From positions 60,824-124,823 of IMG/VR virus record IMGVR_UViG_3300036857_000619: a DNA stretch of 64,000 bases; one strand, given 5' to 3'. Below the pieces are notes generated by a model. The model was given only the letters and a program-made list of their open reading frames with translations. It did no database searches and was not told the DNA's origin. Below, in pieces: positions 57,182-61,659 of the stretch; the first letter of the stretch is position 1, and the number at the start of each line of letters is the position of its first letter. Source of the stretch: a virus. Both the position numbers and the translations under genes were made by a program.

Positions 57182-58078
57182 ATGGGCAAGAAGACCGGCA
57201 TCGGCTGGACCGACTACACGATGAACTGGTGGTGGGGGTGTCTGGAGGTCACCGACGAGGAGTGCGGCGACTGCTACGCGCGCGATTTCGCGCGATCAGC
57301 CCGCGGCGGTAGCTGGAACGGGACATCGCACCCCGAGACCGGCAAGGTCAACCCTGAGATCTGGGGCCCGCCGCTCTCAACCCCGCGACGGCTGTTCGGC
57401 GACAAACACAACGCCGAGCCGTACGCCTGGAACGCCGCGGCGATGAAGGCGAACGAGCGGATGTGCGGCTTCGCCCACTCGATGTCGGACATCTTCGAGG
57501 CGCATCCGATGCTCGTCGATCCGCGCAAGCTCGCGCTGCGTACGGTCGAGAACACGACCTTCATCGACTGGAAGATCCTGACCAAGCGCATCCAGCTGGT
57601 GAGCCGGTACGTGCCGAAGCACTGGATGGAAGGGCAGTGGCCGCGCAATGCCTGGATCGGCTTCTCGGCCGGCAGCCAGGCGTTCTTCGACGAGCGCATG
57701 CCCTACGCGATCGACCTGCCGGCGCCAGTCATCTTCGTCAGTCATGAGCCCGCGACGGGTCCCATCAACATCGAGCAGCTGGCCAGAGCCGTCGATCCCA
57801 AACGTCTGTGGGTCATCACTGGCGGCAAGAGCGGGCGCAACTGGCGCAGCCAGATGATGGACCCGGATTGGGCGCGCTACATGCGCGACCAGTGCCGTGA
57901 GATGGACATCGCGTTCTTCTTCAAGCAGCACTCGGCGTACGGGCCGGGGGTCAGGCCCGAGCTCGACGGCCGGCTGCATCACGAGTGGCCGACGGTGCCC
58001 GGTGTTGGTGGGAAGCTCGGCGGCGTGCGGAAGAAGGCGATGGAGGAGGCCGTGTTGGAGCAGGGGGCGCTCCTGTGA
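57182..58078 (+). CDS. DUF5131 / phage Gp37-Gp68 family protein, 298 aa
   Basis: TGIGWTDYTMNWW.GC..V...C.DCYA, SMSDIFE, LTKR, FVSHEP, WVITGG.SG, FFFKQ. Confidence 0.9.
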   Translation: MGKKTGIGWTDYTMNWWWGCLEVTDEECGDCYARDFARSARGGSWNGTSHPETGKVNPEIWGPPLSTPRRLFGDKHNAEPYAWNAAAMKANERMCGFAHSMSDIFEAHPMLVDPRKLALRTVENTTFIDWKILTKRIQLVSRYVPKHWMEGQWPRNAWIGFSAGSQAFFDERMPYAIDLPAPVIFVSHEPATGPINIEQLARAVDPKRLWVITGGKSGRNWRSQMMDPDWARYMRDQCREMDIAFFFKQHSAYGPGVRPELDGRLHHEWPTVPGVGGKLGGVRKKAMEEAVLEQGALL

Positions 58079-58296
58079 TGTCGGTCGACGTCGAGCGCAT
58101 CGCCCACGAGCGTCTGGAAACCTGGGCGAAGGACTGCATCAACGACCACGCCACGCCGGCGCTGCTGCTGGCCATCGGCCACGACGAGTTCAGCGGTGAG
58201 GTGCACCTGTACCTGCCGGACGACCCGTATTTCGACCAGCGCCGCATCGTGCAGCTGCTGCACCTGGCGCTGCGGGAGCTCACGACACCGTCATGA
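58078..58296 (+). CDS. Hypothetical protein (72 aa)
   Basis: ATG coupled to the DUF5131 stop. Confidence 0.55.
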   Translation: MSVDVERIAHERLETWAKDCINDHATPALLLAIGHDEFSGEVHLYLPDDPYFDQRRIVQLLHLALRELTTPS

Positions 58297-58949
58297 CGAG
58301 CACTGATCTGCATGCCTGGACCGAGATCGAGGTGCCCGCGCGACTGGCGGGTCGGCCCCGCACGCGTGGCTTCGTGGTGCCGTGGTTCGTCGACCAGGAC
58401 GAGCAGGGCAACTGGGATTTCCGCCTGGCCGATCAGCGCAAGCTGGTGCGCGCGGTCAAGCTCAAGCTGTGCTGGCTGTGCGGTGAGCCGCTGGGGCGCT
58501 GGCAGGTGTTCGTCATCGGTCCGATGTGCGCGATCAATCGCACCACCGCCGAGCCGCCGATGCACCGAGAATGTGCCGAGTACGCGGCGGCGGTGTGTCC
58601 GTTTCTGACCCAGCGCGAGCAGCGGCGACGGACCGACCATCTGCATCCCGAGTCGATCGCGCCGGCGGGCACGATGATCGCGCGCCAGCCGGGCGTCACG
58701 CTGCTGTGGGTCACGCGCGAGGGCTATCGGCTCTTCCCGGCGACGGGCGGAGTTCTGCTCAAGATCGGCAGCCCCAGCGAGTGCATCTGGCAGTGCGAAG
58801 GCCGGCCGGCCACGCGTGACGAGGTGCTGGCGTCGATCGACAGCGGCTACCCGCTGCTGCTGGCCGAAGCCGAAGCGGAAGGGCCAGCAGCCATCGCCGC
58901 GCTGCAGCGCATGCGCGCCGCCATCGACCCATTGTTGCCGAATGAATGA
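58293..58949 (+). CDS. Conserved phage zinc-binding protein, 218 aa
   Basis: RGFVVPWFV, LCWLCGEPL, GPMC...EPPMHRECA.Y...CPFL. Confidence 0.7.
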   Translation: MTSTDLHAWTEIEVPARLAGRPRTRGFVVPWFVDQDEQGNWDFRLADQRKLVRAVKLKLCWLCGEPLGRWQVFVIGPMCAINRTTAEPPMHRECAEYAAAVCPFLTQREQRRRTDHLHPESIAPAGTMIARQPGVTLLWVTREGYRLFPATGGVLLKIGSPSECIWQCEGRPATRDEVLASIDSGYPLLLAEAEAEGPAAIAALQRMRAAIDPLLPNE

Positions 58950-59046
58950 CGACCTGCACCAACGTGCTGATCGTGATGGGCGATCGGTGGACGATTCTCG
59001 ACGGGGCGCACTTCCGCACGCTCGCCGAGCGCGTCCTGGACCAGCT

Positions 59047-59271
59047 ATGACCGAGCGCCAGCGCGAGCAGATCGAAGCCCAGGCGGCGCGATGCTTCGCG
59101 GAGTTCTCCGCGTGGTGGTCACTCGGTCACCCCGAGCGGGACGCGCTGTCTGCGCTCGAAGGCTTCATCGCCGCCTGGCCGCTCTCCGATCCCGAAGACC
59201 GCCATGCGCTCGCGCTGGCGATGCTGCCGATGGTGAACGCCGCGGGGATCATCCAGGTGCCGGAGCGATGA
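59047..59271 (+). CDS. Hypothetical protein (74 aa), paralog of 54424..54627
   Basis: RCFAEFSAWW...LSALEGFIAAWPLSDPEDRHALALAMLP. Confidence 0.65.
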   Translation: MTERQREQIEAQAARCFAEFSAWWSLGHPERDALSALEGFIAAWPLSDPEDRHALALAMLPMVNAAGIIQVPER

Positions 59272-59798
59272 CCGAGGTGGTCGAGCGCCAGGGCGAGCGC
59301 TGTCCCGAAGACCCGATGGAACTGTGCGGCCAGCCGATTGGCCAGTACCACTGCCCGGACTGCGGAGAGGCGAAGCCGCGCACAACCGAGTTCTTCTACC
59401 GGCACAGTCAGGGTCGCGATGGACTTCGGCCCACGTGCAAGGTGTGCGTCGGCAAGGCCCAGCAGGCGTACCGGAAAGCCAATGGGTATCGACGCGTCAA
59501 GGAATGGCGTGCTGCGAACCCGGAGAAGCTTCGCGCCATGCGACGGCGCCAGGGTTTGCGGAGAGCTGACTGGACGCCTGATGAGTGGGACGCCGCTTTT
59601 GAGGCCCAGCAAGGCGTCTGCGCTATCGAAGGGTGTGGCCGCCCAGCGACTCAGTCCGACCACGATCACGACACCGGTAGAAGGCGCGCTCTCCTCTGCG
59701 CCGGCTGCAATGTGGCGTTGGGGGTGCTAGCAGACGATCCAGCCCGCATCCGCGGACTGCTCGCATATCTGGAGGCTCATCGTGGTCAAGTGCCCTGA
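59268..59798 (+). CDS. Endonuclease VII-family (homing-type) nuclease (176 aa)
   Basis: C..C...K....F.......GL...CK.C; Q.GVCAI..C...DHDHDTG.RR.LLC..CN.ALG...DDP..I..L..YL. Confidence 0.9.
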   Translation: MTEVVERQGERCPEDPMELCGQPIGQYHCPDCGEAKPRTTEFFYRHSQGRDGLRPTCKVCVGKAQQAYRKANGYRRVKEWRAANPEKLRAMRRRQGLRRADWTPDEWDAAFEAQQGVCAIEGCGRPATQSDHDHDTGRRRALLCAGCNVALGVLADDPARIRGLLAYLEAHRGQVP

Positions 59799-59955
59799 AG
59801 ATCCGATGGCGCTCTGTGGGGCTCCAATTGGGCAATACCACTGCCCTTATTGCGCTTGCATGCAGGTCGCGTGCTGCGCGCACGTGTGCGATCCCGACGT
59901 CTGCCGGCTGGAGAACTGCGAATGCCTGGACCACTCACCGACATCGCGCTGCTGA
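59782..59955 (+). CDS. Cys-rich small protein (57 aa), regenerated copy of the endonuclease's N-terminal host segment
   Basis: GGAGG (59771-59775) plus GTG 59782; KCPEDPMALCGAPIGQYHCPYCACMQVACCAHVCDPDVC..; not in the ORF track. Confidence 0.7.
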   Translation: MVKCPEDPMALCGAPIGQYHCPYCACMQVACCAHVCDPDVCRLENCECLDHSPTSRC

Positions 59956-60239
59956 CGATCATCCAGGAGAAGCTCGACAACGCGCGCCTGGTGGTGCGCC
60001 TGAACGGCCACGTGATCGGCTACTGCGTGCAGGACGCCAAGAACAAGTGGATCGTGCAGACCGCGCCGCCGCCGCCCGAGCGCGTGATTCGCGGCTCGCT
60101 GCAGGCCTGCGCGGAGTGGTTGTATTCGACGATCGAGCCGGAGATGGCGCGCGAGCACGGGGAGCGTGTCATGACGCCATCCGGTCAAGTGTCAGTCGAA
60201 GCACCCGCCGAGCCAGTTCAAACTGAGGCGCCGGCATGA
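59922..60239 (+). CDS. Hypothetical protein (105 aa)
   Basis: VVRLNGHVIGYCVQD..NKW motif. Confidence 0.55.
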   Translation: MPGPLTDIALLTIIQEKLDNARLVVRLNGHVIGYCVQDAKNKWIVQTAPPPPERVIRGSLQACAEWLYSTIEPEMAREHGERVMTPSGQVSVEAPAEPVQTEAPA

Positions 60240-60253
60240 TGGAGGTGGCATGA

Positions 60254-60421
60254 GTGGCCGCCCAGCTCCCGCCGAACTGGCGGTCGATGCGGGTCAAGGA
60301 GCTGCGCCAGTGGCTGCGCGAGCACGGCGGTCCACCGCCGTACCTGAGCCAGATGCGCAAGCACGAGCTGATCGAATGGATCGAGCGCTACGAGCGCCAG
60401 ACCCGCGAGAGTCGGCCGTGA
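60254..60421 (+). CDS. Rho-N/HeH-like small nucleic-acid-binding protein (55 aa)
   Basis: W.SMRVKELRQWLREHG....LSQMRKHELIEWI; GGAGG upstream; not in the ORF track. Confidence 0.5.
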   Translation: MAAQLPPNWRSMRVKELRQWLREHGGPPPYLSQMRKHELIEWIERYERQTRESRP

Positions 60422-60555
60422 GTTGCACGCGCTGCAACCTGAGCGCGCGCCAGCAACGTCGAGGCGACGCCCAGGCGCGCACCGGACGTCAGGTGGGCCG
60501 CCATCCGAGCTGCGGCCACGTGCTGTGGTGGGCGGGCGACGCATGAAAGAACCGC

Positions 60556-60906
60556 GTGGGCGACAGCGACGGGCATCAAGCGCGCAATGAGGAGACGGTG
60601 CGCCGCTTGAGCGAGTACCTGTCTCAGCAGCCGCGCGTGACGTCGGCGACGCGACGCGAGGTGCGTCTGCTGACGGGCGTCGACCCGGTCAGCGAGCTGG
60701 GCATTCCCGAGGCCGACGAGTCCGAGCTCGACGCAACCGCGATCGTGCTGGTGGTGCGCGTGCCGGCGCCGCACGCCGTCGGCGCGAAGATGGAGCGCTG
60801 CGCGGTCTGCAACCGTCGCGTGTGGGTGGCGCGCAGCACGCCGCCGGGCCCCAAGCGCGTATGCGTGGTGTGCTTCATGGACGCGCGGATGGGCTCGACC
60901 GATTGA
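60556..60906 (+). CDS. Zinc-finger hypothetical protein (116 aa)
   Basis: RCAVCNRRVW...CVVC. Confidence 0.5.
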   Translation: MGDSDGHQARNEETVRRLSEYLSQQPRVTSATRREVRLLTGVDPVSELGIPEADESELDATAIVLVVRVPAPHAVGAKMERCAVCNRRVWVARSTPPGPKRVCVVCFMDARMGSTD

Positions 60907-61148
60907 TGCCCAAGTACGTCTTTGAGCAGTCGGCGATCCTGCCAGCCGACGAATCGCTCAGCGTGCTCGAAGCGGAGGCGCTCTCCAGCGTGCTCGCCGC
61001 CGAGCTGCGTCGATGGCTGGACCGGATGCATCACCGGCGACACGCGGTGAGCTACGAGCCACCCTTTGAGCAAGTCGGGGGCGACTTCCTGCCGCCCGAC
61101 GAGCAGGGTGTCGTGAAGCTGGGCGAACCCGTGCCCATCGACCTGTGA
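60906..61148 (+). CDS. Hypothetical protein (80 aa)
   Basis: TGATG overlap. Confidence 0.5.
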   Translation: MPKYVFEQSAILPADESLSVLEAEALSSVLAAELRRWLDRMHHRRHAVSYEPPFEQVGGDFLPPDEQGVVKLGEPVPIDL

Positions 61149-61432
61149 GCGCCGGTCCAGTGGCGGTGGTTTCCGAACGGATGTCCTACCCTGGATGGCG
61201 GGGCATGGACGCGCCGGGGCTGTTCACGCGCATGCAGATCGCCCGCGGCCGGCTGGAGCGGACGCTCGACGCGTACCACAACGGGGCGTACCTGCTTGCG
61301 ATCGGGCACGTGCAGGCGCCTCAGCCCGGCGAGCTCGAGCGCTGGAGCGACGAGCTCGAGGACGCCTACGTCGAGTACCGCGCCGCGGTCAGCCAGGCGC
61401 TCCGCGGCGCGCAGGACCAGGCTGGATCGTGA
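61145..61432 (+). CDS. Hypothetical protein (95 aa)
   Basis: Coupled helical ORF. Confidence 0.5.
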   Translation: MSAGPVAVVSERMSYPGWRGMDAPGLFTRMQIARGRLERTLDAYHNGAYLLAIGHVQAPQPGELERWSDELEDAYVEYRAAVSQALRGAQDQAGS

Positions 61433-61659
61433 TGATGAAGCGCACGACCTACCGACAGCGCTACCTGCGCACGCCGCACTGGCTCGGCTTTCGCACCCGC
61501 GCGATCGCGCGCGCGCACGCCACCTGCCAGAGCTGCGGCAAGCAGCCGCCGAGCCTGGACGTGCACCACCTGAGCTACGCGCGCCTGGGCCGCGAGCGCT
61601 ACGCCGACGTCCTGGTGCTGTGCCGGGCGTGCCATCGCCGCCGCCACGGACGCCGATGA
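61432..61659 (+). CDS. Small HNH endonuclease (75 aa)
   Basis: YL.TPHW...R.......CQSCG....LDVHHLSY..LG.E...D..VLCRACH...H. Confidence 0.85.
   Translation: MMKRTTYRQRYLRTPHWLGFRTRAIARAHATCQSCGKQPPSLDVHHLSYARLGRERYADVLVLCRACHRRRHGRR

Follow-up and report, generated by a model that had tools for sequence, protein, structure and literature searches.

A probable Endonuclease VII-type homing endonuclease gene lodged in the 5' end of a small Cys-rich phage gene

Introduction

How might a nuclease gene come to stand between two diverged copies of the beginning of one and the same gene, one copy fused to the nuclease and the other heading a complete gene? This question is raised by a locus in a 64,000-nucleotide (nt) stretch of IMG/VR virus record IMGVR_UViG_3300036857_000619 (positions 60,824 to 124,823), referred to below as the window. 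The whole record, 124,823 bp with direct terminal repeats, is complete, and the window is its second half; this contig also occurs in an NCBI metagenome assembly and in five soil runs. Here an open reading frame (ORF) for an Endonuclease VII (Endo VII)-type nuclease, ORF1, begins with a fragment of a small Cys-rich gene (copy A) and is followed by ORF2, a gene of this Cys-rich kind that opens with a second, diverged version of the same fragment (copy B). A reading of the nucleotide sequence by itself (the original prediction) had taken this arrangement for a homing element without intron or intein that fuses to its target gene and keeps that gene functional and immune by carrying a synonymously recoded 5' end.

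Our analysis makes it probable, from sequence comparison, that ORF1 is a free-standing Endo VII-type homing endonuclease gene (HEG) that has settled within the beginning of a small phage gene for a zinc-binding protein. Most likely the nuclease arrived together with the 5' end of a donor allele, while the 5' fragment of the resident gene was pushed aside and became joined in frame to the nuclease through an HCPDCG motif present in both. The mobile tract would then most likely take in no less than the last two thirds of the nuclease gene, together with the ~25 opening codons (copy B) of a foreign target-gene allele, and the host gene stays whole because copy B completes ORF2.

Results

Two diverged copies of one gene end

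Copy A (59301-59363; ORF1 residues 12-32) and copy B (59791-59853; ORF2 residues 4-24) are identical at 18 of 21 residues and at 46 of 63 nt, and in 10 of the 18 conserved codons the third base alone differs, copy B having A/T-ending codons that are rare in the host genome; recomputation returned all of these figures as originally predicted. The repeat was the sole second match in a tblastn search of the 124.8-kb genome (E 1.5e-10) and is therefore not a product of chance. Nonsynonymous divergence between the copies is low (pN 0.09) and synonymous sites are saturated, and since nearly all differences are synonymous the two must have diverged while both were under protein-level selection, like alleles of different phages.

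The proposal of a special synonymous recoding is not borne out by a comparison with 14 uninterrupted alleles of the Cys-rich gene. Over the same 63 nt these alleles have a mean nucleotide identity of 74% (60-90%), and A and B, at 73%, differ by the usual allelic amount; the number of identical codons between them (7/17) is not significantly below expectation (P = 0.055). The uninterrupted alleles all agree at 48 nucleotide positions, and copy B deviates at a single one of these; across all 14, which come from distant phages, identity is 0.75-0.84 for A and 0.62-0.75 for B. On the simplest reading, then, copy B would be another phage's allele brought in with the nuclease, with no need for purpose-made recoding, and the divergence between A and B would still hinder repeat-mediated deletion and self-cleavage.

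Codon usage and the foreign tract

The genome of the record is GC-rich, its genuine genes having a G+C content at third codon positions (GC3) of 0.85-0.92. Along the locus GC3 is 11/11 in the leader that precedes copy A in ORF1, 17/21 (0.81) in copy A, 0.68 in the nuclease body, 11/21 (0.52) in copy B and 28/33 (0.85) in the rest of ORF2, against a host value of 0.87. The nuclease differs from the host (P = 3e-9), as does copy B (P = 1e-4), which differs also from the rest of ORF2 (P = 0.014); leader and copy A together (28/32) differ from nuclease usage (P = 0.006). Scored for codon adaptation against 39 long ORFs of the window, host genes come out at about -0.85; the leader (-0.46), copy A (-0.71) and the rest of ORF2 (-0.77) score higher, the nuclease (-1.28) and copy B (-1.47) lower. 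A likelihood change-point analysis placed the switch from foreign to host usage after ORF2 codon 25 (2-lnL range 18-31), and this codon is the homologue of the last codon of copy A, where the repeat ends. We conclude from these compositional differences that copy B appears to form one foreign tract with the nuclease, or with its distal two thirds at the least, and that copy A and the 3' part of ORF2 appear to be resident. Layout and codon usage thus agree with the original prediction of a nuclease joined in frame to part of its probable target gene, with a complete, diverged copy after it.

It has to be considered whether the first 21-24 codons were instead duplicated in situ at insertion, and then diverged by selection against repeat-mediated loss or self-cleavage. 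Such an origin would suit both the direct repeats around the insert, which are a classic result of staggered or illegitimate insertion, and the ten synonymous third-base changes toward A/T in copy B. Against this, synonymous sites are saturated and three residues differ, the displaced fragment would have needed the same protein constraint as the working copy, the divergence is at the ordinary between-phage allelic level with a codon identity not significantly below expectation, and the codons of B fit the nuclease and not a mutated host sequence. We therefore regard duplication in situ as very unlikely.

The Cys-rich gene and its uninterrupted alleles

ORF2 had no Pfam match and weak matches to phrog_29033/34602, and in the NCBI record of the contig this intact 57-amino-acid (aa) ORF is not called as a gene. 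An exhaustive HMMER search detected 108 representative clusters (50% identity) of small Cys/His-rich phage proteins at E<=1e-3, with the family core CPEDPxxLxGxPIGxYHCPxCGxMxxAGxxH, and among these 108 representatives none is fused to a nuclease except ORF1. By its sequence ORF2 is a complete member of this large and widespread family of small, putatively zinc-binding phage proteins.

At least 14 uninterrupted alleles occur in the close subfamily (P0001 in L001, L006, L097 and L105-L117), and all of them read through CPxC(G/A)CMQVA without a break. Homologous host-gene alleles without the nuclease thus exist in distant phages, the presence-and-absence pattern of a free-standing HEG. Their N-termini are M(V)KCPEDP, MVACPEDP and similar, and none has the leader MTEVVERQGER, so that of the empty alleles originally foreseen in relatives the uninterrupted genes themselves were found and the exact predicted site, with this leader, was not. 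In L006 the gene opens with ATG-GTC-AAG-TGC, the exact homologue of GTG-GTC-AAG-TGC in ORF2, from which it follows that the ORF2 start is ancestral and the gene complete. The GGAGG and the GTG do lie within the last codons of ORF1 as first described; the further claim that this start is new fails on the same homology.

The repeat might also be the trace of an old paralogy unrelated to mobility, had there once been two tandem Cys-rich paralogues of which the first lost its 3' part to the nuclease. The Cys-rich family is large and such a pair does flank an Endo VII gene in another contig, L041, but the gene is single-copy in all relatives examined, the codon-usage split points the other way, and paralogy does not predict that copy A and the foreign tract that includes copy B should end at the same codon; we find this explanation scarcely credible. 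In one soil contig (L136:1597-3201) an Endo VII gene lies ~0.9 kb upstream of a member of the Cys-rich family, not adjacent to it and with no repeat, and this locus was not counted.

The nuclease and its N-terminus

ORF1 matches the Pfam family Endonuclease_7 (PF02945) over residues 98-169 (E 1.3e-16, 60.7 bits against a cut-off of 23.6) and phrog_2633, 'endonuclease VII', over residues 25-172 (E 8e-26). We detected 319 homologues, the best of them 42-44% identical, which align from residue ~28 to residue 176. Their typical N-terminus is a methionine, 2 to 15 further residues and then CxxCGExKP, followed by a short zinc ribbon and the Endo VII domain. Residues C29, C32, C57, C60, D131, H132, H134, C144, C147 and N148 are invariant in this alignment, and C118 nearly so. 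In an AlphaFold2 model of ORF1 (mean predicted local distance difference test score, pLDDT, 84) residues 1-22 are unstructured, pLDDT exceeds 90 from residue ~30, and strands are placed at residues 26-28, where the ribbon starts, 35-37, 43-45 and 53-57.

The first CxxC of the N-terminal zinc ribbon, invariant in the nuclease family, corresponds in ORF1 to C29 and C32, and these two residues belong to copy A. Because the homologues align from about residue 28 and the modelled ribbon starts with the strand at 26-28, the QYHCPDC that ends copy A is, as alignment and model have it, at once the end of a host-gene fragment and the predicted first strand and knuckle of the nuclease. The original suggestion that a host CxxC supplies the first half of the nuclease's zinc finger is in keeping with this alignment and with the confident folding of the stretch. 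That the element has no intron and no intein likewise stands, Rfam giving no intron family at E<=1 in 58500-60600 and Pfam giving Endonuclease_7 alone in ORF1 and no intein domain. A word-based search with ORF1 residues 1-40 against proteins of 96-308 aa returned ORF1 itself only, and no second fusion of a Cys-rich gene to a nuclease.

The leader MTEVVERQGER resembles the N-terminus MTEVVVRHNGN of another nuclease, P0082, which is 34% identical to ORF1 and encoded on contig L013 (leader at L013:3034-3066); in both genes the ATG overlaps the stop of the upstream gene (ATGA). The pattern MTE[VIL]V occurred nowhere else in six frames of 0.63 Mb of fetched loci. The likeness may reflect either a conserved leader of a nuclease lineage or coincidence, and the leader of ORF1 is accordingly either the N-terminus of the resident gene or a nuclease-lineage leader, with codon usage in favour of a resident origin.

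The same layout in other phages

Contig L013 has a pair of Endo VII genes within 1.5 kb (L013:2747-4702). Each follows a host gene and is flanked by repeats that are diverged 3' ends of this preceding gene (40 aa, 70%, E 4e-16, and 35 aa, 51%, E 4e-8); the second orphan end is fused in frame to the C-terminus of its nuclease. The gene-completing copies have nuclease-like GC3 values of 0.51 and 0.59, and the displaced copies host-like values of 0.81 and 0.77. By composition, the gene-completing copy thus appears foreign and the orphan native both in the window and in the two L013 cases, and L013 is an independent replicate of the codon-usage pattern seen in the window.

The original prediction had proposed a survey for the same architecture. 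We took 80 further Endo VII loci from IMG/VR, found with an alignment of seven sequences, and compared left with right flanks by tblastx. Adjacent same-strand repeats were present in 10 of 76 usable nuclease intervals and in 1 of 377 mismatched controls. Setting aside the window, L013 and two low-complexity matches leaves five robust cases among 73 loci (Table 1), so that, with both L013 nucleases, the architecture does recur. In all surveyed repeats synonymous sites are saturated. In L050, L058 and L073 the orphan end supplies the last codons and the stop of the nuclease, and one case, L075, is of the 5' type seen in the window. The orphan is fused in frame in 5 of 8 cases, a share that does not significantly exceed the one third expected. 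Candidates at L024, L079, L080, L083, L019, L059 and L046 were rejected as low-complexity or stop-containing frames, and L041 as a tandem paralogue pair and not a nuclease with a replacement end.

These loci bear on the suggestion that the Endo VII protein is a phage resolvase or packaging-type nuclease and no homing enzyme, the fusion being an accidental and now stationary rearrangement. T4 endonuclease VII is a junction resolvase, and a variant knuckle in the catalytic domain of ORF1 (Cx4C) could mean an altered function. The combination of zinc ribbon and Endo VII domain, however, is found at variable positions beside unrelated genes in hundreds of viral contigs and is repeatedly accompanied by duplicated host-gene ends, and the codon usage of ORF1 is foreign, all of which makes a stationary resolvase extremely unlikely.

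The locus and its neighbourhood

The features of the locus are listed in Table 1. The TGA of the 74-aa upstream gene overlaps the ATG of ORF1 (ATGA), which suggests translational coupling of the two. A blastn search with 58200-61200 against 50,697 phage records gave no match; the relatives L007-L012, which share a 218-aa upstream gene, are without the whole locus.

Table 1. Features of the locus in window coordinates, and the five robust survey cases in coordinates of their own contigs.
Feature	Coordinates	Strand	Description
74-aa upstream gene	59047..59271	+	without family match; GC3 0.86, host-like
ORF1	59268..59798	+	176 aa; probable displaced host-gene 5' fragment fused to Endo VII-type nuclease
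Leader MTEVVERQGER	59268..59300	+	11 codons, host-like usage
Copy A	59301..59366	+	probable displaced native 5' fragment of Cys-rich gene, CPEDP...HCPDCG
N-terminal zinc ribbon of ORF1	59352..59447	+	C29, C32, C57, C60; presumed DNA-binding module
Endo VII catalytic domain	59559..59774	+	C118, C123, D131-H132-D-H134, C144, C147, N148
GGAGG Shine-Dalgarno of ORF2	59771..59775	+	in last ORF1 codons; GTG at 59782 6 nt on
ORF2	59782..59955	+	57 aa, 14 Cys, GTG start; 17-nt overlap with ORF1
Copy B	59791..59856	+	gene-completing 5' end of ORF2; foreign, nuclease-like codons
ORF1 stop	59796-59798	+
ORF2 rest (CMQVAC... to end)	59857..59952	+	host-like codons; read as resident part of hybrid gene
105-aa downstream gene	59922..60239	+	without family match; overlaps ORF2 end
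L045	L045:1772-2748		75 aa of portal gene's end duplicated
L075	L075:1476-2293		5' type as in window: 36-aa orphan start, nuclease, full small zinc-ribbon gene
L050	L050:1924-2555		120-aa gene; orphan 3' end fused in frame to nuclease C-terminus
L058	L058:1965-2513		77-aa gene; orphan 3' end fused in frame to nuclease C-terminus
L073	L073:1883-2522		endolysin-like gene; orphan 3' end fused in frame to nuclease C-terminus

A DUF5131 gene (phage Gp37/Gp68-like, E 7e-45) lies upstream at window positions 57182-58078. At 61430-61659, 1.6 kb downstream, there is a small HNH-type ORF (...CQSCG...DVHHL...CRACHRRRH), with a faint PF01844 match in the L014 gene table, which is a second nuclease gene of the region.

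Discussion

We propose that the nuclease would cut uninterrupted alleles near TAC CAC TGN CCN ... TGN GGN TGN ATG CAG, at codons ~24-26; the conserved block of nucleotides across the junction resembles the sites preferred by homing enzymes. The right-hand broken end would then invade a nuclease-carrying donor at CMQVAC and copy leftwards through copy B and the nuclease, and the left-hand end, ...HCPDCG, would join the nuclease's own HCPDCG-type zinc knuckle by microhomology. The motif at the junction is native to both partners, being YHCPDCGCMQ in allele P0001 and KHCPDCGETKP in nuclease P0006. The event would amount to a one-sided, partly illegitimate double-strand-break repair, and illegitimate double-strand-break repair with limited exon homology was reportedly described for T4 intron homing by Parker, Belisle and Belfort in 1999. 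A break at about codons 24-26 together with these joins would produce just the arrangement seen, in which the fusion is in frame and both boundaries coincide. From the displaced fragment the nuclease would now draw its start codon and first zinc knuckle as well as its coupling to the upstream gene. Protection of the HEG-bearing allele would come from the interruption of site A and from site B belonging to a diverged allele, and the composite, once formed, could home into any sufficiently similar empty allele.

Several observations weigh against this account. A search of viral and metagenome contigs with an 'empty allele' composed of copy A and the rest of ORF2 brought up many family members, none of them with the leader MTEVVERQGER and none above 77% identity. 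Protein identity to the nearest uninterrupted alleles is 72-77%, no close relative with an empty site was found, and contigs of five soil runs all have the insert; when contigs from four of six soil runs were compared with the locus none joined across the nuclease, contigs being assemblies that drop rare variants. The first catalytic knuckle of ORF1 is Cx4C (C118, C123), where ~90% of homologues have CxxC, and activity is therefore not assured. The left change-point in codon usage is vague, with a maximum-likelihood position after ORF1 codon 69 (range 37-73) and not at junction codon 33, which leaves the left junction unconfirmed by composition. In a few residues copy B and the rest of ORF2 are both closest to P0001-type alleles, which speaks weakly against a chimeric ORF2. 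Lastly, homology of the leader to that of P0082 would place it in the nuclease lineage and turn copy A into an internal patch, which our model does not explain.

The last three points also count in favour of an alternative in which the nuclease came already fused to the leader and copy A, as the scar of an earlier host, and landed intergenically upstream of an intact ORF2, so that B would be native and A foreign; the ancestral start GTG-GTC-AAG retained by ORF2 is in line with this as well. It is contradicted by the host-like codons of leader and copy A (P = 0.006 under nuclease usage, as given above), by copy B, whose codons are the rarest anywhere in the locus and which directly adjoins the 3' part of the nuclease, where GC3 is low, and by the L013 cases, in both of which the gene-completing copy also looks foreign. 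Arrival in an already fused state therefore seems unlikely, and we continue to prefer the joint arrival of the nuclease and a foreign 5' end.

Beyond this locus, phage Endo VII homing endonucleases might commonly travel as cassettes of a nuclease plus a replacement gene end, the inner edge of the orphan marking the cleavage site, and in the present case the CPxCG motif of both enzyme and target might have let the orphan become start codon and first zinc knuckle. We put this generalisation at somewhat short of an even chance. If it is true, such cassettes let nucleases live inside essential or conserved coding sequence without an intron or intein, and genome sequence by itself could reveal what many uncharacterised phage nucleases target. 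The layout would give selfish nucleases a third means, next to introns and inteins, of settling in a coding sequence while the gene survives, and it appears to be recurrent in phages, at ~7% of the Endo VII loci sampled. For annotation it would account for orphaned ends of genes and for unusual tails at either terminus of nuclease genes; for phylogeny, host genes beside such nucleases would be chimeras of two lineages; and for enzymology the orphan boundary would predict each nuclease's cut site.

Comparison with known systems

Among free-standing phage HEGs, the T4-type Seg and Mob genes ('intronless homing', PMC2988022) are likewise phage-borne, and their proposed mode of spread is a double-strand-break repair that co-converts flanking donor sequence with a cleavage-resistant target. 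Unlike the element described here, they are intergenic or split a gene into two polypeptides (mobE/nrdA, mobA/gene 60) (PMC2988022). That review of T4-type mobile elements mentions no duplicated target-gene ends, nor does the 2023 survey of phage nuclease genes (PMC10448857). F-CphI of cyanophage S-PM2 (Fang et al., 2018, PMC6083498) is a homing endonuclease with the Endo VII catalytic motif and shows that this catalytic fold can work in a free-standing phage enzyme of the homing type; its target is the psbA intron insertion site, and it is not fused to its target. T4 endonuclease VII (gp49), the founder of PF02945, shares with ORF1 the four zinc-binding Cys and the D-H-x-H...N motif of the catalytic domain. 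It is, however, a junction resolvase of the structure-specific type, lacks the additional N-terminal zinc ribbon and is not known to be mobile.

The closest parallel lies in the mobile endonuclease ORFs (mORFs) of fungal mitochondria, which form 'gene hybrids' (Beaudet et al., 2013, PMC3630166, citing Paquin et al., 1994) in atp6 of Allomyces macrogynus, in atp6, atp9, cox2 and nad3 of Glomus sp., in atp9 of Rhizopus and in cox2 of Mortierella (PMC3630166). There the order is an inserted foreign C-terminal copy with a LAGLIDADG or GIY-YIG gene, and then the displaced native C-terminus (PMC3630166; also PMC7487136). As in the window, an endonuclease sits inside a protein gene without intron or intein, a foreign end completes the gene and the native end is displaced beyond the nuclease, which is sometimes in phase with the host gene. 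The locus has this layout, with two copies of a host-gene end flanking the nuclease, ORF2 complete with the family core and the orphan copy A stopping at CPDCG. In both systems the duplicates resemble each other far more as proteins than as DNA (Glomus atp6, 91% aa against 63.5% nt, PMC3630166; here, 86% aa against 73% nt). The mORFs differ in that they carry LAGLIDADG or GIY-YIG enzymes in organelles and mostly affect 3' ends, although an N-terminal atp9 duplication is mentioned (PMC7487136), whereas here an Endo VII-fold enzyme stands in a phage at a 5' end and the displaced native fragment appears to serve the nuclease as start codon and first zinc knuckle. Our literature search found the layout described for fungal mitochondria and not for phages. 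The layout itself is thus the one known from fungal mitochondria, and it is met here in a phage, with an Endo VII enzyme, at the 5' end of a gene and with the orphan built into the nuclease.

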